Shown here: one piece after another, positions 4,686 to 22,260 of the stretch
Layout of the letters: the number at the start of each line of letters is the position of its first letter
Position numbering within the stretch: the stretch's first letter is position 1
The notes under the pieces: model-generated
The model's database searches: none
What the model saw: the letters and a program-made list of their open reading frames with translations, nothing else
Told to the model about the DNA's origin: nothing
Position numbers and translations under genes: made by a program
Virus genome (UHGV): UHGV-0335559
Length of the DNA stretch: 23,334 nucleotides
Reading direction: 5' to 3' (one strand)
Source: a virus

Positions 4686-5138
4686 CTAACGGTCGAGGTG
4701 AGCCAGAATAATCTCTTCAATCATCTGCACATCCTCACCGGTAAAGCCGAGCAGAGGACGCGCCGGATAATCAATTTTCTTACCGTCTTTCCGGTTTTCT
4801 TCCGACAGACCGAACTGATGCACGCTGGCGATTTTCGGTGACTTCCCGCCGTAAAACTCCATTGATGCCTGTTCCGGGCTGGCGCGGATATGCAAAAAAC
4901 GACTGGTGATAAGTTTCGCAAACATTTTTCGCTTAACACGACCAGTCTTTTTTCTGGCGCTCTGCTGCTGGCGTGGCGCGTAGGGTGTACCGTCCGGGGC
5001 TTTCTGAGCCATCACCCGACGCTGCTGACTCTGCCGCAGACGTTTCGCCAGTTCGGCACTCAGTCGCCGACGCCCTGACGGTGACAGCGACTCAATCAGT
5101 CCGGTCAGCCGGTCTTCAAAACGCTTAAACTCATTCAT
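4686..5138 (-). CDS. S: Tail completion / virion morphogenesis protein gpS
   Basis: 150-aa ORF downstream of R; length and order match P2. Confidence 0.85.
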   Translation of the reverse strand: MNEFKRFEDRLTGLIESLSPSGRRRLSAELAKRLRQSQQRRVMAQKAPDGTPYAPRQQQSARKKTGRVKRKMFAKLITSRFLHIRASPEQASMEFYGGKSPKIASVHQFGLSEENRKDGKKIDYPARPLLGFTGEDVQMIEEIILAHLDR

Positions 5139-5598
5139 CCCACTTGCTCACCAGTTCGCCATTGATATAAAGCTTCATCGGGCGGGTGACCGGCTCCGGC
5201 GGCGTGGGTTCCGGGATATTCTTCACATGCAGCGCGCCGTCCACCTCACTGACCAGCGTGCGTTCGGTCAGCATCAGGCTGATGCTGATATCAAAGCTGC
5301 TGTCATTGTTGATGTCTGCATAAAACGTGAAGCCCTTTTTCTGGCCTTCGTCGGTGGTCATGATGTCGGGCTGATTTTCCCGCAGCCACGCCAGCACCGG
5401 CACGATGAGCAGGTCAAAATCACCGGTAAAGTCGGTCACAATCACATTGAGCGTGTAACGCTTTTCGAATGACAGCGACGTCGCCAGTGTGGAGGCAATA
5501 CTCCCGTTATCCACGAATATCCGCAGCATCTCTGGACTGGTTTTCAGCACCGTGACGGCATCAGTCAGCGCCCTGCGCAGGCTGTCGGGTTTGAGCAT
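5131..5598 (-). CDS. R: Tail completion protein gpR
   Basis: 155-aa ORF; length and order match P2 gpR; overlaps S by 8 nt. Confidence 0.85.
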   Translation of the reverse strand: MLKPDSLRRALTDAVTVLKTSPEMLRIFVDNGSIASTLATSLSFEKRYTLNVIVTDFTGDFDLLIVPVLAWLRENQPDIMTTDEGQKKGFTFYADINNDSSFDISISLMLTERTLVSEVDGALHVKNIPEPTPPEPVTRPMKLYINGELVSKWDE

Positions 5599-5851
5599 CG
5601 TTTTCGTCCTGACAGTGTTTAATCATTTTTACCTGGCTGGCACAGCGTGCCAGCGCGTTCTCAAGCTGCCGGATATCGGCACTTAAATCGCCGTTCGTCT
5701 CCGGGTCACTGCCCGGCATCGGGCAAAGACTCACTTTCGGGCAGGCGTTGGCGACAATCACTGGCGTCAGTGCAGGCCGGACGCTGGTGCAACCGGCGCA
5801 CAGCATCAGGCAGGTCAGCGCCGTACCAGCGGCGAAAATCTTCGTTTTCAT
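5561..5851 (-). CDS. lysC: Outer-membrane spanin lipoprotein (LysC/Rz1-like), embedded out of frame in lysB and running into R
   Basis: Internal Met of the 109-aa ORF gives MKTKIFAAGTALTCLMLCAGC..., a signal peptide with lipobox cysteine, followed by a Pro-rich mature part. 96 aa, as I recall for P2 LysC. Start chosen at the internal Met, not the ORF-track start. Confidence 0.7.
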   Translation of the reverse strand: MKTKIFAAGTALTCLMLCAGCTSVRPALTPVIVANACPKVSLCPMPGSDPETNGDLSADIRQLENALARCASQVKMIKHCQDENDAQTRQPAQGAD

Positions 5852-6131
5852 TAAGTAACCTCGTGATGGTTTTCTCGCGCTGTGCTTCACGCTTCGCGGC
5901 GTTCTCCAGTTCCTGACGCAGTGCTACCTGCGCCAGCTCGTTTTTGTCTGCCCTGGTGAGGGCAACATGAAGCTGATTTTTCAGCATGGTGATGGTCGTC
6001 TGCTGCCCGTTGGCGACGTTGCTCGCCCTGTCCAGTGAGGTGCGCAGGCTGGCGTTTTCATGCTTCGCCAGAAACAGACCGGCCACCGCCAGTGATAACA
6101 ACACAACCAGCACAATCATCAGCTTTGACAT
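5706..6131 (-). CDS. lysB: Inner-membrane spanin (LysB/Rz-like)
   Basis: 141-aa ORF with N-terminal TM segment (MSKLMIVLVVLLSLAVAGLFLA) and a coiled-coil-like, charged remainder. Position after lysA. Confidence 0.8.
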   Translation of the reverse strand: MSKLMIVLVVLLSLAVAGLFLAKHENASLRTSLDRASNVANGQQTTITMLKNQLHVALTRADKNELAQVALRQELENAAKREAQREKTITRLLNENEDFRRWYGADLPDAVRRLHQRPACTDASDCRQRLPESESLPDAGQ

Positions 6132-8152: not shown

Positions 8153-8896
8153 TTAACTGGCTTTCTTTTTCGGGCGTCCACGTTTTGCCGGTGTCACGCT
8201 CCGGGTCTTACGCGGGGCGCGGGGGGACGCTTTGGGCTGCGGCTCCGGCTTCGGTTTCATCTCCCGCTCCAGTCGTTCAATCTCTTTTTTGACGCCTGCC
8301 TGACAGTCGAGCTGTGTCGCACGTTGCAGGTGCGCCAGCGCACCGGCGGCATCACCACCGTCACGCAGAAACAGACCGGTGATTTTGTGCAGCTTTGCGC
8401 GCACTTCATCAGGCATGTCAGCCGTGGCAGTCAGTTCAAGGGTGTCCGTCAGCAGGCGGGTATCCACAGACTCACCGGCAGCGTGGGCGCGCATGGCCGC
8501 AAGTGCCACCTCCTCGGTGAACATGTACGGCGGGGTACGGCGGTGTTTACCCGGCATGGTCAGACCGTATTTCAGGGCATAACGGGCAATCTCCAGCGCA
8601 CCGGCAATATCGCCGGTATCCAGACGCCACAGCATGACCGTCATCAGAATGTCATCCTGTGCACCTTTGCCCTGCTCCAGCACGCCGTTCACCCACGGCA
8701 ACCAGAACGGCAGCAGTTCGCGTTTTTTCGCGGCTTTCAGCTCTTTTGAATAAATCGCTTTCAGTGTGCGCTGGTCTGCGGCCAGCTTGACCAGCATCTG
8801 CTCATAGACAGTTGCATGTCGCAGCGGGGCGGCTTCCCGCTGCGCGGTCATCGCTGCCGAGACCCGCATCATGTGGCGCTGTGCGGGACTCGTCAT
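8153..8896 (-). CDS. M: Terminase endonuclease (small) subunit gpM
   Basis: 247-aa ORF; sequence (MTSPAQRHMMRVSAAMTAQREA...) is very close to P2 gpM as I recall it, with a basic C-terminal tail. Confidence 0.9.
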   Translation of the reverse strand: MTSPAQRHMMRVSAAMTAQREAAPLRHATVYEQMLVKLAADQRTLKAIYSKELKAAKKRELLPFWLPWVNGVLEQGKGAQDDILMTVMLWRLDTGDIAGALEIARYALKYGLTMPGKHRRTPPYMFTEEVALAAMRAHAAGESVDTRLLTDTLELTATADMPDEVRAKLHKITGLFLRDGGDAAGALAHLQRATQLDCQAGVKKEIERLEREMKPKPEPQPKASPRAPRKTRSVTPAKRGRPKKKAS

Positions 8897-10886: not shown

Positions 10887-11059
10887 TGTCAGGAGTCCTG
10901 AATAGTGATTAGAGGAGTCACATGTCGGCATCAGTTTCCCGACGATGCGCATCCTCCGCCATCAGTCCCGGATGGCTTATCACTGACACAACAGCACCTT
11001 AGCGAATCGCGGGACGCGACTCAGTAGCCTTGCCGTGTATTCATCACGGCGAGGTATTC
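10887..11059. promoter_or_regulatory. Divergent late-promoter region between O and P
   Basis: 173-bp gap between divergently transcribed O and P, as in P2 where the Ogr-activated late promoters lie. I could not find a clean TGT-N12-ACA dyad by eye, so exact elements are unassigned. Confidence 0.35.
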
Positions 11060-12829
11060 ATGACCATCACCACAGACACCACTCTTTTACACGACCCGCG
11101 TCGTCAGGCGGCGCTGCTGTACTGGCAGGGGTTTTCCGTGCCGCAGATTGCCGCCATGTTGCAGATGAAACGCCCGACGGTGCAGAGCTGGAAACAGCGC
11201 GACGGCTGGGACAGCGTTGCCCCCATCAGCCGTGTCGAAATGAGTCTGGAAGCGCGGCTGACCCAGCTCATCATCAAACCGCAGAAAACCGGCGGTGACT
11301 TCAAGGAAATTGACCTGCTCGGACGCCAGATTGAACGACTGGCACGGGTCAACCGTTACAGTCAGACCGGCAACGAGGCAGACCTTAATCCGAACGTCGC
11401 TAACCGCAACAAAGGCGGGCGTCGCAAACCGAAAAAGAATTTTTTCAGTGACGAGGCCATCGAAAAGCTGGAGCAGATTTTCTTTGAGCAGTCTTTCGAA
11501 TATCAGTTGCACTGGTATCGCGCCGGGCTTGAGCACCGCATCCGCGATATCCTGAAATCCCGCCAGATTGGCGCAACGTTTTATTTTTCCCGCGAGGCGC
11601 TGCTGCGCGCCCTGAAAACCGGTCATAACCAGATTTTTCTGTCGGCCAGTAAAACGCAGGCGTATGTGTTCCGCGAATACATCATCGCCTTTGCCCGGCT
11701 GGTTGACGTTGACCTGACCGGTGACCCGATTGTCCTGGGCAATAACGGCGCAAAACTGATTTTTCTCGGCACCAACTCCAACACCGCACAGAGCCATAAC
11801 GGTGACCTGTACGTCGACGAGATTTTCTGGATCCCGAATTTTCAGGTACTGCGTAAGGTGGCATCAGGTATGGCCTCACAGAGTCACCTGCGCTCGACCT
11901 ATTTCTCCACCCCGTCCACGCTGGCGCACGACGCCTATCCGTTCTGGTCGGGTGAACTGTTCAACCGGGGACGCGCCAGCGCCGCCGAACGCGTGGAAAT
12001 CGACGTCAGTCATAACGCCCTTGCCGGTGGGCTTCTCTGTGCGGACGGCCAGTGGCGGCAGATTGTCACCATTGAGGACGCCCTGAAAGGTGGCTGCACG
12101 CTGTTCGACATTGAGCAGCTTAAACGCGAAAACAGCGCCGACGATTTTAAAAACCTGTTCATGTGTGAATTTGTTGACGACAAGGCGTCGGTATTCCCGT
12201 TCGAGGAGCTGCAGCGCTGCATGGTCGATGTGATGGAGGAATGGGAGGACTTTGCCCCGTTCGCCGACCATCCGTTCGGCTCTCGTCCTGTCTGGATTGG
12301 CTACGACCCGTCACACACCGGCGACAGTGCCGGGTGCGTCGTGCTCGCGCCGCCGGTGGTCTCTGGTGGCAAGTTCCGCATGCTGGAGCGCCACCAGTGG
12401 AAGGGCATGGATTTTGCAGCACAGGCAGAGGGCATCCGCAAGCTGACCGAGAAATACAACGTCGAATACATCGGCATTGACGCAACCGGCCTCGGTCTCG
12501 GCGTGTTCCAGCTGGTGCGCTCATTTTACCCGGCGGCACGCGGCATCCGTTACACACCTGAAATGAAAACCGCAATGGTACTCAAGGCGAAAGACACCAT
12601 TCGCCGTGGCTGTCTGGAGTACGACGCCGGAGCAACCGACGTCACGCAGTCGTTTATGTCCATCCGCAAAACCATGACCAGCAGCGGGCGCTGCGCCACC
12701 TATGAGGCCAGCCGCACCGAGGAAGCCAGCCACGCCGATATCGCATGGGCGACCATGCACGCCCTGTTAAACGAACCGCTTTCTGCCGGTAGCGGCATGC
12801 AGCCTAAATCTATTCTGGAGTTCAACTAA
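11060..12829 (+). CDS. P: Terminase ATPase (large) subunit gpP
   Basis: Start set at MTITTDTTLLHDPRRQAALLYWQGF... with GAGG 7 nt upstream, giving 589 aa. The ORF-track start at 11030 lacks a ribosome binding site. Confidence 0.9.
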   Translation: MTITTDTTLLHDPRRQAALLYWQGFSVPQIAAMLQMKRPTVQSWKQRDGWDSVAPISRVEMSLEARLTQLIIKPQKTGGDFKEIDLLGRQIERLARVNRYSQTGNEADLNPNVANRNKGGRRKPKKNFFSDEAIEKLEQIFFEQSFEYQLHWYRAGLEHRIRDILKSRQIGATFYFSREALLRALKTGHNQIFLSASKTQAYVFREYIIAFARLVDVDLTGDPIVLGNNGAKLIFLGTNSNTAQSHNGDLYVDEIFWIPNFQVLRKVASGMASQSHLRSTYFSTPSTLAHDAYPFWSGELFNRGRASAAERVEIDVSHNALAGGLLCADGQWRQIVTIEDALKGGCTLFDIEQLKRENSADDFKNLFMCEFVDDKASVFPFEELQRCMVDVMEEWEDFAPFADHPFGSRPVWIGYDPSHTGDSAGCVVLAPPVVSGGKFRMLERHQWKGMDFAAQAEGIRKLTEKYNVEYIGIDATGLGLGVFQLVRSFYPAARGIRYTPEMKTAMVLKAKDTIRRGCLEYDAGATDVTQSFMSIRKTMTSSGRCATYEASRTEEASHADIAWATMHALLNEPLSAGSGMQPKSILEFN

Positions 12830-12830
12830 A

Positions 12831-13877
12831 ATGGGTAAACAAAAATCCCGTAAAGCCAACGCACAAAAGGCCAGCAAACCACAACAACTGACCGCCAGCG
12901 CACCGCCAAAAACGACAGCGTTCACCTTCGGCGAGCCGGTGCCGGTACTCGATAAGCGCGACATTCTGGATTACGTCGAGTGCATCAGTAACGGCAAATG
13001 GTACGAGCCGCCGGTCAGCTTCTCAGGGCTGGCAAAGAGCCTGCGCTCTGCCGTGCATCACAGCTCGCCAATTTATGTTAAGCGTAACGTGCTCGCGAGC
13101 ACCTACATTCCGCACCCGTTGTTATCCCGTCAGGATTTCAGCCGCTTTGCGCTCGATTATCTGGTGTTCGGTAACGCCTTTCTTGAGCAGCGCCACAGCG
13201 TCACCGGCCAGTTAATCAAACTGCTGGCCTCGCCAGCCAAATACACCCGACGCGGAGTCGACGATTCGATTTTCTGGTTTGTGGAAAACTTCACCCAGCC
13301 GCACGAGTTCGCGCCTGATACCGTGTTTCACCTGCTGGAGCCCGACATTAATCAGGAGATTTACGGTCTGCCGGAATATCTCAGCGCGCTTAATTCCGCT
13401 TGGCTGAATGAATCCGCGACGCTGTTCCGCCGCAAGTATTATCAGAACGGCGCGCACGCAGGCTACATCATGTATGTGACTGACCCGGCGCAGAGCGCGA
13501 CCGACGTCGAATCGCTGCGCGAGGCGATGCGCAACTCAAAAGGGCTCGGCAACTTTAAGAACCTGTTTTTCTACGCTCCCGGCGGAAAACCGGACGGCAT
13601 CAAAATCGTGCCACTGAGCGAGGTCGCCACAAAGGATGACTTTTTCAACATCAAGAAGGCCAGTGCCGCCGATCTGATGGACGCGCACCGCGTACCGTTC
13701 CAGCTCATGGGCGGCAAGCCCGAGAATATCGGTTCACTCGGTGATGTTGAGAAGGTGGCAAAGGTATTTGTGCGCAACGAGCTGTCGCCGCTACAGGACA
13801 GGTTCAGGGAGGTAAATGACTGGCTCGGCATGGAGGTCATCAGATTCAAAGAGTACACCCTCGACAACCCAGAATAA
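12831..13877 (+). CDS. Q: Portal (capsid vertex) protein gpQ
   Basis: 348-aa ORF starting 2 nt after the P stop; position and size match P2 gpQ. Confidence 0.9.
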   Translation: MGKQKSRKANAQKASKPQQLTASAPPKTTAFTFGEPVPVLDKRDILDYVECISNGKWYEPPVSFSGLAKSLRSAVHHSSPIYVKRNVLASTYIPHPLLSRQDFSRFALDYLVFGNAFLEQRHSVTGQLIKLLASPAKYTRRGVDDSIFWFVENFTQPHEFAPDTVFHLLEPDINQEIYGLPEYLSALNSAWLNESATLFRRKYYQNGAHAGYIMYVTDPAQSATDVESLREAMRNSKGLGNFKNLFFYAPGGKPDGIKIVPLSEVATKDDFFNIKKASAADLMDAHRVPFQLMGGKPENIGSLGDVEKVAKVFVRNELSPLQDRFREVNDWLGMEVIRFKEYTLDNPE

Positions 13878-13907
13878 CTTAGGCCGCCACAATCTCTGCG
13901 CTCATTA

Positions 13908-13936
13908 TTGAAGATGCAATCTGCGAAAGCTATAGT
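13908..13936 (+). promoter_or_regulatory. Candidate sigma-70 promoter for the cargo gene
   Basis: TTGAAG (13908-13913), 17-bp spacer, TATAGT (13931-13936); about 18 bp upstream of the ATG at 13955. No clear Shine-Dalgarno, so the mRNA would have a short leader. Confidence 0.45.
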
Positions 13937-13954
13937 GCATCGAATATCAAAACA

Positions 13955-14959
13955 ATGGGCGCGGAGATTAATATTTTGGAAACTGATTTTAAAATAACCC
14001 TCGAAGGTTTCGCTACTGAGCAAGAAGCAAATAATATCGGTAATTTCACACTAGAAGCTATCCGAGCTTTAACAAAAAATCTCAATCTTGATATCTCCAA
14101 ATTAAAATGCGTGATTGTTTCCTATAACTTCAGTGAAGCTCTTCAAAAGGTAACATCCTCTTACCAACACAAATCCCCTAGTTCATTTACCAATAGCAAA
14201 CAGGGCGCAGCCGTCGGGCAGTTAGTAACAAAAATTGGCAATGATGGGCTATGTGAAGAATATACCCTTGTGCTATCGATTGATTTTTTTGTTGAGCTTT
14301 TCAATGATGGTAGCTTCTTAAAACTGAAAGAAGAAGGATACCTCGCAGTCATCCATCGCATTCACCATGAATTAGTGCACGTACATGAAAAAAACTTACT
14401 AACATGCTTAGCCCAAAACTTTACAGTCAACGAGTATGGTAGCGCGCTTCTTATCTCAGCCACGCGTGCATGGTCTGAATATCTCGCTAATTACATGTCT
14501 TCGGGGTCTGCCCCTCAAGAAACTATCGATTTATTTTTAGAGAATCTTGACACTGTTGTAAATGAAGTATCTGACGAGATTGAAAAACTCATCTGGGGTT
14601 ATAAGTACGGTAATATTTCTCTGAATGACATGTATCTTGAAGTAAAAAAACGTATCAGGCTAATCATCAACTCTTATGCTTATGCGATGGGTTATGTCCA
14701 TTCTCTAAACATCAATATTAAAGAATACGATCCAAAGCTATCCCTTACACTATCCAACTCAAAGATAAGATATCAATTATCAGAATTAGGCATTGCTTTT
14801 CAGAATCTTTATGGGAAGTTTAATGACCAGCACATTACAGGTTTTGGTGATTTTCGGGAGATAACAATAATCATTGATGAAATATTCAAGCAGTTTGGGC
14901 TTGTTTTAGAGTGTCCCGATTGGTCTGGCGACGGTGAACTCTACATACATGTAAATTAG
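13955..14959 (+). CDS. Hypothetical cargo protein, 334 aa, HExxH motif (IHRIHHELVHVHEKN); no recognisable family
   Basis: Long uninterrupted ORF in an island of about one-third G+C (flanking phage genes are well above 50%). Sits between the portal gene and cos, where P2 as I recall it has only about 100 bp. No Walker A, no TM segment, no HTH that I can see. Confidence 0.6.
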   Translation: MGAEINILETDFKITLEGFATEQEANNIGNFTLEAIRALTKNLNLDISKLKCVIVSYNFSEALQKVTSSYQHKSPSSFTNSKQGAAVGQLVTKIGNDGLCEEYTLVLSIDFFVELFNDGSFLKLKEEGYLAVIHRIHHELVHVHEKNLLTCLAQNFTVNEYGSALLISATRAWSEYLANYMSSGSAPQETIDLFLENLDTVVNEVSDEIEKLIWGYKYGNISLNDMYLEVKKRIRLIINSYAYAMGYVHSLNINIKEYDPKLSLTLSNSKIRYQLSELGIAFQNLYGKFNDQHITGFGDFREITIIIDEIFKQFGLVLECPDWSGDGELYIHVN

Positions 14960-15178
14960 TTTAATCATAGTAGAAACATAATTAGCAGTTTGAATCCTGC
15001 CACTCCTGTAAAGCCGCTGCTCCTGGTGGCTTTTCCATGCACACCACCATCACGCATCAGATGCGTCTCACGCGCACGAACACACTCGACCACCAACGAA
15101 CCAGCAGCGACCACGACAGCGCCATCACGACGCGCTCAGAGGATAATTTTTATTATTACGCATCACTGCTGGCGCGCA

Positions 15179-15197
15179 ATGCTTTCCCCGCCACGCC
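15179..15197 (-). other. cos-like site (19-nt cohesive-end sequence of P2/186-type phages)
   Basis: Minus strand reads GGCGTGGCGGGGAAAGCAT, matching the 19-nt cohesive end as I recall it for 186 (P2: GGCGAGGCGGGGAAAGCAC). Its orientation relative to Q is the same as at the P2 left end. Confidence 0.55.
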
Positions 15198-15353
15198 TGC
15201 CCGCTTTATGGGGCGGTTTTAATGCAGTTGCATGACAACTCTGGATCCGCGCTAGCTCTGGCGGCGCACGGACAGAACGGGCAAGACTGACGCATGCAAA
15301 ACCATGCACCTAATGCATGCACGACTAAAAAACGGGAAATTCGCGGAAAAATG

Positions 15354-15390
15354 GCATAAAAAAACCGGCATTCAGGGTGCCGGTTTTAGT
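15354..15390. terminator. Bidirectional rho-independent terminator
   Basis: A-tract (15356-15364), 7-bp stem ACCGGCA (15364-15370) / TGCCGGT (15378-15384) with a 7-nt loop, then TTTT. U-runs follow the hairpin on both strands; it would end the minus-strand tum-like operon before cos. Confidence 0.55.
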
Positions 15391-16789: not shown

Positions 16790-19012
16790 TTACCCATGTA
16801 TTGGTTTTGATGCTTCAGCCATCGCCGCAACACGATTAAGGATTTTCCGAGCTTTAGCCTCATGCGATGGTGCTGCGGAAAATATTTCTCCTTTGGCCGT
16901 TCCGCGTAGCCATTTACCATCAAAACAACTTTTACCACCGGCCATCAGGTGCAGGGCTTCGCCCCGGCTGATATTAATGCCGGTTGTCAGATGTATCTCA
17001 TCGATAGTTTTAGCTATAGCTGCGTTTTGCTCATCCGTTCCGTGGATGAATTTTCGCCGTGCTGCTGGCTTTTGCTTCCTGAGTCGGTTGGTCAATTCTC
17101 GTCTTTCACGCCGACTCAGTGGTTTTGTTAAATCCAGTATCGGTGGATCGCTTTCGCTTCCCGTACAGTTATTGACAGAACTCCGAGGGACGGCTTTGCC
17201 GTCCTGAAGGTCAACGGCCAAATCAACAGCACGCTTCGGAACAATCTTCCACTGAGTGAGCCGGGTTAAAATCGGGCTTCCTGCACCTATGGAGGAATCG
17301 TAGACCCCCTTAATACATACCGTTTCCTCACCGTACTGATTAAGCTCGGTGCGCGGTTCATACAGTGTGCGCACCTGTAAATCATCGCGACGGACAAACG
17401 GCCCACCCTGAGCATTAACATAACCAGCCCAGTCACCAGCGTCGGCGGCATCATGGACGGCGGCAAACTCAACGCTCAGACCGTGCGCGGTTTCGGTATC
17501 AGCGAGGCGACGCAACTCACGGTAAACCGTCACCGGCGCACCACCAATAAACTGAAACTGACGGATGTGCCAGCGCGCAGCCCATGCTGAAACGGCGGGG
17601 GCTGTCTCTTTCAGCAGCTCACCGCTTTCATCATCGGTTTCACCATCGAGAGCATAACCGTCGATATTTTTTGAAATGTATTTAGCAACATAGCCGGTTG
17701 CGCTGCCTTTCTCCGGGTCAATGGACTCGGCGTGGAAACGTGCTTTTTTGGATTTATCGCTTTTCAGTTCGTGGCGGTCTTCTTTCCATGCGTATTTACG
17801 GACGATGGAGCGAACATATTCAACATCTTCCGGCAGCATGAACATCAGCATGTGCCAGTGTGGAGTGCCGTCGTGATGGGGCTCGGCGACACGAATACCG
17901 AAAATACGGACATCTTCCCGATGTAGTTTGGCACGGATACGCGCCCAGATACCGGTTAGATAGTTTTGCGTGTCAGCCGGGCTGGCACCGCTCCATTTGC
18001 TGTTACGGTAACCGGCTTTAGTCGTGGCGTGATATTTTGACGGCGCGGTTAGAGTGTAAAACTCACCGACATAACCGAGCTCATTACAGATGTTTTCAAA
18101 CCCACGAATGCGGGTCATGAGCTCACAGCGGCGAATCGCAGGGTTAGCAACTGAGCCATCATATTTTTCAATTAGGCTGATACGGTTGCCGTCTTCGTCT
18201 TCGAGATCCAGACCTTTGAGAAATTCACGAGTGCGGCGCTTTTGTTCACGCCAGTCAGTCACGCAGTTTTTACTCGCGTAAGTGTTTTTTTTCTTACTGA
18301 CGTTGCCGACTGCAATTTGCAGGTGTTCGCGCCACGTAGCTGCAACACGGCGCAAACGACCGCGCCACCACCCATCGTTAAACATTTTGGCGATAGCCGG
18401 TGCGATTTCATCCGCACCGACATATTTTTTTTCAACCCGCTCCCAATGTGGTGGGATAACGTTGAATTGGAGGGAAATAAAGCCAGCACGAATATACCAG
18501 GTGTACAGCGTTTTAAGCTCGCCGAATCCGTGGTCATTAATGTTGGCAAGTTCACCACGAATGAAATTAGCAATATCAGCGGCCAACAGGTCAACATCAG
18601 CGCGCGACATGTCCGGGAGACGGTTATATTGGGCGACCATATTAACCATGCGTGACGACAGATATTGCATTTGCTGAGTATCAAAATGACTTCCAAAAAC
18701 AGCGGTTGATACCTTGCTGTTGATACCAGCGCATTCGTATTTTTTTGCGACCAGTTCAAGACGCGGCAATGCCTTTTTGCAGAAGCTGATTAAAAATGCA
18801 TTGGCTCGTTGACTACCCTGATTTTGCTCCAGCACCGCAGCAGTGCGATAAACATCTAACCGCACGCAGTCGGGCTGGAGAGAAAGCACCTTTTTTGCAT
18901 GCAGCAAAGCCGCGAACATACGGTCGCGGCGATGCTGTTGCTCATAAGTAAGGTATGGGCTGGAGATTGCCGACCGTGGGACGTTCCACGGATAAGCGAA
19001 TTGAACAGCCAA
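16790..19012 (-). CDS. A: Replication initiation endonuclease gpA (rolling-circle initiator)
   Basis: 740-aa ORF with HUH-type motif (EPHHDGTPHWHMLMF) and a tyrosine region (GYVAKYISKNIDGYALDG), as in the P2 A protein family. Confidence 0.9.
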   Translation of the reverse strand: MAVQFAYPWNVPRSAISSPYLTYEQQHRRDRMFAALLHAKKVLSLQPDCVRLDVYRTAAVLEQNQGSQRANAFLISFCKKALPRLELVAKKYECAGINSKVSTAVFGSHFDTQQMQYLSSRMVNMVAQYNRLPDMSRADVDLLAADIANFIRGELANINDHGFGELKTLYTWYIRAGFISLQFNVIPPHWERVEKKYVGADEIAPAIAKMFNDGWWRGRLRRVAATWREHLQIAVGNVSKKKNTYASKNCVTDWREQKRRTREFLKGLDLEDEDGNRISLIEKYDGSVANPAIRRCELMTRIRGFENICNELGYVGEFYTLTAPSKYHATTKAGYRNSKWSGASPADTQNYLTGIWARIRAKLHREDVRIFGIRVAEPHHDGTPHWHMLMFMLPEDVEYVRSIVRKYAWKEDRHELKSDKSKKARFHAESIDPEKGSATGYVAKYISKNIDGYALDGETDDESGELLKETAPAVSAWAARWHIRQFQFIGGAPVTVYRELRRLADTETAHGLSVEFAAVHDAADAGDWAGYVNAQGGPFVRRDDLQVRTLYEPRTELNQYGEETVCIKGVYDSSIGAGSPILTRLTQWKIVPKRAVDLAVDLQDGKAVPRSSVNNCTGSESDPPILDLTKPLSRRERRELTNRLRKQKPAARRKFIHGTDEQNAAIAKTIDEIHLTTGINISRGEALHLMAGGKSCFDGKWLRGTAKGEIFSAAPSHEAKARKILNRVAAMAEASKPIHG

Positions 19013-21921: not shown

Positions 21922-22260
21922 ATGAAAAAGTTTATATTTGCGATAGTCTGCATTGCACTTTCTTCCTCAGCCATAGCCGCTGAGAAGTTTAAAGAGATAG
22001 ACGGCGCTGCATATGGTGACAAGTGGCCTCTAACCTTTGAAAAGGCAAAGGTATCATGTGTTAACCGTGCTTATGCTTTTGTGTATGACATCAAAACTGA
22101 TGATAGATATCCTCTGAATGGCATGGCGGTAGATGCTGTTAAATCAGGAAAGCTGGAGGGGTCTAACTTAGATGACGTATGGAAGGATGACCCTGAGTAT
22201 GACGGCGTTAAAATTTCAATTTCACCGGTGATTGATGCCGCTACAGCCCTTTGTAATTAA
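21922..22260 (+). CDS. Small secreted protein (112 aa) between cI and int; possible lysogenic-conversion gene
   Basis: AAGGAG Shine-Dalgarno 7 nt upstream; N-terminal signal peptide MKKFIFAIVCIALSSSAIAAEKF; one Cys near each end of the mature part. Confidence 0.6.
   Translation: MKKFIFAIVCIALSSSAIAAEKFKEIDGAAYGDKWPLTFEKAKVSCVNRAYAFVYDIKTDDRYPLNGMAVDAVKSGKLEGSNLDDVWKDDPEYDGVKISISPVIDAATALCN

Follow-up and report, generated by a model that had tools for sequence, protein, structure and literature searches.

The window, i.e., the whole 23,334-nt stretch of DNA analysed here, encodes the packaging, head, tail, lysis, replication and regulatory functions of a P2/186-type prophage, all as intact open reading frames with strong family matches. 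Intact copies of gpM, gpP, Q, N, O and L are present, and homologues of the capsid, scaffold, head-completion, gpA, CI and integrase proteins are encoded. A 99.9% identical locus is found in E. coli 1008S13, where it lies inside a complete P2/186-type prophage adjoining yfiB. The small, endonuclease terminase subunit is a gpM homologue encoded on the minus strand at 8153-8896 (Pfam Phage_term_smal, E = 3.6e-48), which PGAP names 'terminase endonuclease subunit' at the near-identical 1008S13 locus. The large subunit is a gpP homologue on the plus strand at 11030-12829 (Pfam Terminase_6N, Terminase_6C and Terminase_5), for which the start annotated in the near-identical genome corresponds to position 11060. 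It is followed on the same strand by the portal gene, a gpQ/186 W homologue hereafter called Q (12831-13877; Pfam Phage_portal; PGAP 'phage portal protein' in 1008S13). A homologue of the replication gene A occupies the minus strand at 16790-19012 (Pfam Phage_GPA, E = 2.4e-130). Between Q and A lie a 334-aa open reading frame of foreign appearance, hereafter the cargo gene (13955-14959, plus strand), and a 19-mer at 15179-15197 that has the sequence of a phage cohesive end (cos). Gene A forms the conserved right-end-side boundary of the accessory hotspot discussed below and lies 1592 nt from cos, with a DinI gene (Pfam) and small open reading frames in between. Elsewhere in the window, a DUF2511 gene (21922-22260, plus strand) sits between the CI repressor and integrase genes; this interval is likely another accessory-gene slot, and the integrase side is described as a minor hotspot in a 2026 NAR study (PMC13586616).

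Reading the minus strand from 15197 down to 15179 gives GGCGTGGCGGGGAAAGCAT, the plus strand at 15179-15197 being ATGCTTTCCCCGCCACGCC. This is the only match to GGCGTGGCGGGGAAAGCAT in the window when both strands are searched with up to three mismatches; dinucleotide-preserving shuffles return a mean of 0.01 matches, and the chance expectation for an exact 19-mer under a uniform model over 2 x 23,334 positions is 1.7e-7. A previous, sequence-only reading of this DNA had pointed to the 19-mer on this strand and had identified it with the cohesive end of 186-type phages. Both claims are borne out: nucleotides 1-19 of phage 186 (U32222.1 / NC_001317) are the same 19 bases, annotated as 'cos; cohesive end; top strand cut at 5' end and bottom strand cut at 3' end', and the PSP3 and EtG records annotate their own ends as identical to the 186 cos. 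The alignment to published termini proposed in that reading was run and gives full identity with 186 and two mismatches with the cosL of P2 (GGCGAGGCGGGGAAAGCAC; NC_001895), and the 19-mer matches the P2/186-family cohesive-end pattern GGCG(A/T)GGCGGGGAAAGCA(C/T). Megablast aligns the window from 15197 down to 15024 (minus strand) with bases 1-175 of 186, PSP3, SEN1 and EtG at 85-88% identity, and the published end of these four phage records, which start at cos, falls exactly on the first G of the 19-mer. On the strength of its identity to the 186, PSP3 and EtG ends, the segment 15179-15197 (minus strand) is assigned as the cohesive-end 19-mer, equivalent to cosN. By transfer from the 186 annotation, the minus strand is predicted to be nicked at 15198/15197 and the plus strand at 15179/15178, leaving 19-nt 5' overhangs.

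The site lies between A and Q with its GGCG end toward Q, as in the P2 and 186 maps. When the minus strand is read from GGCG, the cargo gene is met first and then Q, both antisense, and the order in P2 and 186 is likewise cosL, then Q; the orientation toward Q that had been proposed by analogy with the P2 left end is therefore correct. A P4-like satellite cos was also considered and rejected, since Q, P, M and A all flank the site. Across the family, the type of cos tracks the portal/packaging lineage, the median identity to the Q of the window being 93.7% in loci with a 186-type cos and 77.4% in those with a P2-type cos. A hybrid cohesive end, GGCGAGGCGGGGAAAGCAT, which has the P2 base at position 5 and the 186 base at position 19, was seen in 10 of 196 loci (L013, L030, L031, L038, L042, L043, L050, L078, L103 and L126); most of these loci lack a Q close by and are possible satellites.

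The 19-mer belongs to a 55-bp cos core (15172-15226, minus strand; -29 to +26 from the first cos base). A 55-bp core common to the P2-family phages and the satellite P4 was described by Ziermann and Calendar in 1990, as cited in the phiRSY1 paper (PMC5694545). The core of the window shows two mismatches with 186, five with P2 and six with P4, and the two differences from 186, at positions -16 and -6, are both at positions that vary across the family. A comparison set of 185 distinct cos regions, taken from collections of genomes and viral contigs, has 40 columns that are at least 95% conserved; the window carries the consensus base at all of them, 26 having been preset by the search pattern while the remainder fall in the -29 to -1 block. 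Beyond approximately +40 nt, the ungapped alignment loses its register because of indels and is uninformative on the left arm, for which pairwise blast was used. The homology of the window that is anchored on cos then extends to +188, and the left arm, a non-coding spacer at 15024-15178 (minus strand) homologous to nucleotides 20-175 of 186, is intact; over 175 nt, the identity to 186 is 86%.

On the opposite side, a four-way alignment of circularised junctions matches the last ~190 nt of 186 with 15198-15390 of the window. The right arm of cos (15198-15330, minus strand) is marked by a cluster of seven TGCAT/ATGCA motifs in 133 nt, against 0.34 expected from their density over the whole window; counted from cos on the minus strand, the cluster runs from -124 to -29. 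These blocks are 60-95% conserved among the 185 cos regions and are present in both 186 and P2. They are candidate terminase-recognition repeats and may be the terminase-binding part of cos. The whole region is framed by terminator-like hairpins. On the Q side, a hairpin followed by TTTT (15010-15033, plus strand; terminator-like match, 9-bp stem by RNA folding) corresponds in position to tW of 186 (nt 164-187) and tQ of P2 (160-181), and is assigned as the terminator of the P-Q transcript, cargo gene included. On the A side, a symmetric hairpin with a 12-bp stem lies between an A-run and a T-run (15361-15387, minus strand; terminator-like match) and aligns with the 186 region annotated as t95b; this t95b equivalent would end the DinI/Tum-side transcript ahead of cos.

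A 61-aa open reading frame (15037-15222, plus strand) traverses cos, and the 19-mer might be conserved as a mere part of a protein gene that has no role in packaging. RefSeq PGAP annotates the frame as a hypothetical protein (WP_000557532.1), it is annotated as well in the phage record vB_EcoM-613R3, and 123 of 191 related loci have an ATG-initiated frame of at least 50 codons across cos. Against this stand the other 68 relatives, in which the DNA is conserved and no such frame exists, and the curated records of 186, P2 and PSP3, which place no gene across cos. Searches of Pfam and NCBIfam assigned the 61-aa product to no family, the region is bracketed by terminators on both sides, and its conservation is already explained by identity to experimentally defined cohesive ends. 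A coding origin of the 19-mer is thus extremely improbable, and the frame is probably a spurious call on conserved non-coding DNA.

The cargo gene is carried on a module of 1146 bp with 38% GC (13878-15023, plus strand), the limits of which were set by blastn breakpoints against five cargo-free 186-type relatives. Homology to these relatives stops at the Q stop codon (13877-13879) and resumes at ~15021-15025, inside the terminator hairpin. With breakpoints at these two points, the module takes the place of only ~20 bp, which extend from the Q stop codon to the 3' half of the terminator. The start of the gene is ambiguous: the ATG at 13955 has no obvious Shine-Dalgarno sequence, and an alternative TTG at 13988, preceded 9 nt upstream by GGAG, would give a protein of 323 aa and is the position at which many homologues begin. 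Given that the 19-mer is a 186-type cos, a distance of 238 nt separates the stop codon of the cargo gene from the predicted left end of the virion DNA, which supports the earlier proposal that this is the gene nearest one end of the packaged molecule. The companion proposal, that the gene lies across cos from the place where P2 carries old and tin, holds as well, since old and tin are located between A and cosR.

The cargo is foreign DNA, as its low GC content, its patchy presence and its homologues in non-phage islands attest. The module has a GC fraction of 0.38 vs 0.57 for P and Q together. The gene is absent from 186, PSP3 and most relatives, and was found in 26 of 5426 complete E. coli genomes and in a single one of 50,697 phage records, vB_EcoM-613R3 (ON470592.1). 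The same cargo occupies the cos-Q slot in Citrobacter amalonaticus (L014, 95%) and in a viral contig (L194, 91%), and partial copies occur in three more loci. More distant homologues were detected outside P2-like phages, in Shewanella (L203, 3998-4969, 43%) and Serratia fonticola (L204, 6001-7011, 59%). The former has NERD and CSD-Excalibur genes as neighbours and the latter resolvase and HEPN-like genes, and both neighbourhoods resemble defence islands. In vB_EcoM-613R3 (L003), the Q-side cargo protein is 100% identical to that of the window, while the A side next to cos holds a different gene of 313 aa (4950-5891) where the window has small open reading frames only. The two elements share the Q-side cargo and differ on the A side, which indicates that the two sub-slots vary independently.

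Altogether, these observations of sequence identity, context, conservation, breakpoints and frequency of the arrangement point to 15179-15197 being the cos of a complete 186-like (Eganvirus-type) E. coli prophage, with the cargo gene as the first gene from the left end, a reading to which we give a probability of roughly 90%. A functional cos would be the simplest interpretation, and cleavage at this site is predicted. After induction, terminase formed by gpM (8153-8896) and gpP (11030-12829) would recognise the 55-bp core and its arms and introduce staggered nicks 19 nt apart, one in the minus strand (15198/15197) and one in the plus strand (15179/15178). At its left end, the resulting virion DNA would carry GGCGTGGCGGGGAAAGCAT as a 5' single strand, with the left arm next to it, then the operon terminator, and then the cargo gene and Q. 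The low-GC module of 1146 bp was inserted downstream of the Q stop codon and ahead of the P-Q operon terminator, and it occupies the left-end sub-slot of the cos-proximal gpA-gpQ accessory hotspot. Against this reading, the additional 1.1 kb has to fit the capsid. Cleavage and the nick positions are predicted from identity and context, and the expression and function of the cargo are likewise presumed.

The same conservation could be a matter of descent, with a relic cos in a prophage that is no longer induced or packaged and whose virion left end would be only notional. The sole record with the same cargo in the phage collection is labelled 'partial genome', and the 55-bp core carries the two substitutions relative to 186. 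Against decay stand the intact packaging, head, tail, lysis, replication and regulatory frames listed above, with their strong family matches, and the preservation of both cos arms and of every highly conserved core column. Copies of the cargo-cos arrangement in Citrobacter and in viral contigs are moreover 91-99% identical, suggesting that it spread horizontally in recent times. We therefore consider decay improbable and retain a functional 186-type cos as the preferred reading.

The position of the module raises the question of how the cargo gene is expressed. It is co-oriented with P-Q and precedes the operon terminator, beyond which the left arm of cos is intact throughout. The 77-bp spacer between Q and the cargo gene contains no terminator-like hairpin, and it holds a promoter-like site, TTGAAG-17-TATAGT, at 13908-13936, although such matches are no commoner than in shuffled sequence. 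From the shared orientation, the terminator-free spacer and the promoter-like site, one can presume that the gene could be read through from the late operon and could also be expressed alone. A stronger claim would be that the position itself matters, the cargo being a late lytic gene recruited into the P-Q operon and expressed together with the packaging genes, and not a passive lysogenic-conversion gene in a permissive slot. The common strand, the spacer free of hairpins and the retention of the operon terminator downstream of the cargo all speak for such recruitment. In addition, cargo frames in other Q-side slots are mostly on the opposite strand, convergent with Q, so that the wiring of the window is the less common one. 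The promoter-like site in the spacer, its unexceptional frequency notwithstanding, argues the other way. So do the patchy distribution of a gene that is dispensable for 186, PSP3 and most relatives, the homologues outside phages, and the presence elsewhere in the slot of defence systems that are expressed from prophages. On balance, recruitment as a late lytic gene appears rather unlikely, yet it deserves more weight than the decay of cos considered above.

The cargo protein has no match in Pfam, PADLOC or NCBIfam. The gene matches phrog_11743, which is annotated as unknown function, and the 78 homologues found are all named 'hypothetical'. A profile of the family returned only noise against the PDB sequences. 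In 29 homologues, down to 42% identity, the residues H137, H138, E139, H142 and E145 (HHExxHxxE) are invariant, with H138-E139-x-x-H142 on a predicted helix at 126-148; W173-S-E175-Y is invariant as well and lies on a helix at 160-185. Alignment and helix prediction leave E175 and E145 as two alternative candidates for the third zinc ligand. The AlphaFold2 model is confident (mean pLDDT 90.6), and its comparison with the PDB by Foldseek returned nothing significant. The predicted fold resembles that of gluzincin-type zinc metallopeptidases with solved structures. With no sequence-family match and two candidates for the third ligand, the protein is called peptidase-like in fold and is not assigned to a named family. 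It is tempting to go further and to regard it as the founding member of an unannotated HExxH gluzincin-fold family and as a new single-gene anti-phage or counter-defence effector, which would be wired into the late P-Q operon and made both in the lysogen and during late lytic growth. Members of this putative family would be found in Enterobacterales, Shewanella and Psychromonas, both in prophage hotspots and in chromosomal islands with NERD, HEPN and resolvase genes as neighbours. We put this proposal forward as a speculation with perhaps slightly less in its favour than the late-gene scenario.

The location of the cargo has several precedents. The slot between cos and the portal gene has been reported since the 1990s to attract insertions in P2-like phages, and the cos-Q interval is the hotspot suggested in the phiRSY1 paper (PMC5694545), with reference to Dodd and Egan 1996 and Nakayama 1999. 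In Rousset 2022 (PMC9122126), everything from gpA to gpQ counts as one defence hotspot, 'adjacent to the cos site', and the 2026 NAR study (PMC13586616) likewise defines gpA-gpQ as the hotspot. The cargo of the window falls inside this locus, which both studies take as one and leave unsplit at cos; the Table S5 rows examined in Rousset 2022 pool genes from both sides of cos (PMC9122126). The cargo gene of the window was not found in the rows of that study's supplementary tables that were examined.

The survey of how the slot is used covered 76 genome loci and 120 viral loci with a located cos core, for which the distance from cos to the Q stop codon was measured. Among all 133 loci in which Q was found, this distance is at most 200 nt in 109, 201-600 nt in 6 and more than 600 nt in 18. 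In the subset of 67 loci with at least 4.5 kb downstream, the corresponding counts are 49, 5 and 13, so that 19% of them carry a large insertion. The gaps longer than 600 nt have 34-48% GC and hold at least 14 unrelated modules; PADLOC recognises Avs5, DRT2, a type I-C RT-Toprim retron, PD-T4-4/HEC-02-like ATPases and PDC-S02 in the slot. The sequence-only reading had implied that a cargo between cos and Q is unusual. This is unsupported, the slot being documented and occupied in 13 of the 67 surveyed elements. Both the 186-type cos and the cos-Q insertion slot are already known, and the layout is real but ordinary; as the site is a published cos and the slot is documented and commonly used, the finding is not new.

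What varies among the occupied slots is the amount of left arm that is kept. Homology anchored on cos extends to +188 in the window and in two loci that share its cargo (L014 and L194), and ends between +27 and +73 in the other 15 loci with a gap of more than 600 nt. The cargo loci with a short left arm, reaching 27-73 nt past the first cos base, are L015, L019, L037, L042, L058, L063, L072, L077, L095, L105, L111, L117, L151, L163, L192 and L200. In the window, the insertion landed behind the operon terminator, and the left arm was thereby preserved. The other side of cos varies as well: the median distance from A to cos is 1.5 kb (n = 12) for loci in which cos and Q are more than 0.6 kb apart and 3.0 kb (n = 71) for those with an empty Q side, and the A side is a minimal 547-588 nt in four 186-type loci that carry Q-side cargo. 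A trade-off between the two sides of cos is possible.

Comparison with well-described systems places the window close to 186, PSP3 and EtG, with which it shares the 19-mer, its orientation to the portal gene and the terminators on both sides. It differs from 186 in the distance between the portal stop codon and cos, which is 176 nt in 186 and 1301 nt in the window, where 1146 bp of foreign DNA intervene, and in its right-end side, which carries a PSP3-like set of DinI and small open reading frames in place of the tum-orf97 of 186. The P2 region is similar in its A ... cos ... Q order, its 19-nt end, its 55-bp core and the tQ terminator before cos. However, P2 has tin and old between A and cosR, and its cosL-Q interval of 167 nt is empty, so that the occupancy by large cargo in the window is the reverse of that in P2. 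In phage phiCTX (NC_003278), the ctx gene (362-1222) lies between cosL (1-21) and the Q homologue (1417-2469), and is cited as marking the cos-Q insertion hotspot (PMC5694545). As in the window, a horizontally acquired cargo is the first gene from the left cohesive end. In contrast to the cargo of the window, which is co-oriented with Q and shares the operon terminator, ctx is convergent with Q and has its own annotated promoter and terminators, and the cohesive end of phiCTX measures 21 nt where 19 nt are predicted here.

Retrons offer a further parallel. According to the title of Dodd and Egan 1996, as cited in PMC5694545, the retrons Ec67 and Ec86 replace the DNA between cos and a terminator in 186-related prophages. 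These are likewise cases of foreign defence DNA adjoining cos in a 186-type prophage, but the window keeps the cos-terminator spacer and has its insertion on the Q side of the terminator. One of the surveyed loci (L200) also has a type I-C RT-Toprim retron gene between a 186-type cos and Q, and keeps its left arm only to ~+32 nt. In the satellite P4, the genes gop, beta and cII come directly after cos (1-19), on the left-end side that holds the cargo in the window.

The current understanding of P2/186 packaging is unaffected by these results. Fixing cos at 15179-15197 does give the true map of the packaged chromosome of this prophage, and it divides the well-known gpA-gpQ hotspot at cos into a pair of sub-slots that are physically distinct. 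The left-end sub-slot is occupied in about one-fifth of P2/186-like elements, recognised defence systems being among its contents. Most cos-Q insertions delete the left arm past about +27 to +73 nt, whereas that of the window spares it; if the elements with a short arm still package, most of the ~170-nt cos-Q spacer would be dispensable. The position of cos is thus of use for delimiting cargo in the discovery of defence genes and for judging how much of the DNA flanking cos is dispensable.
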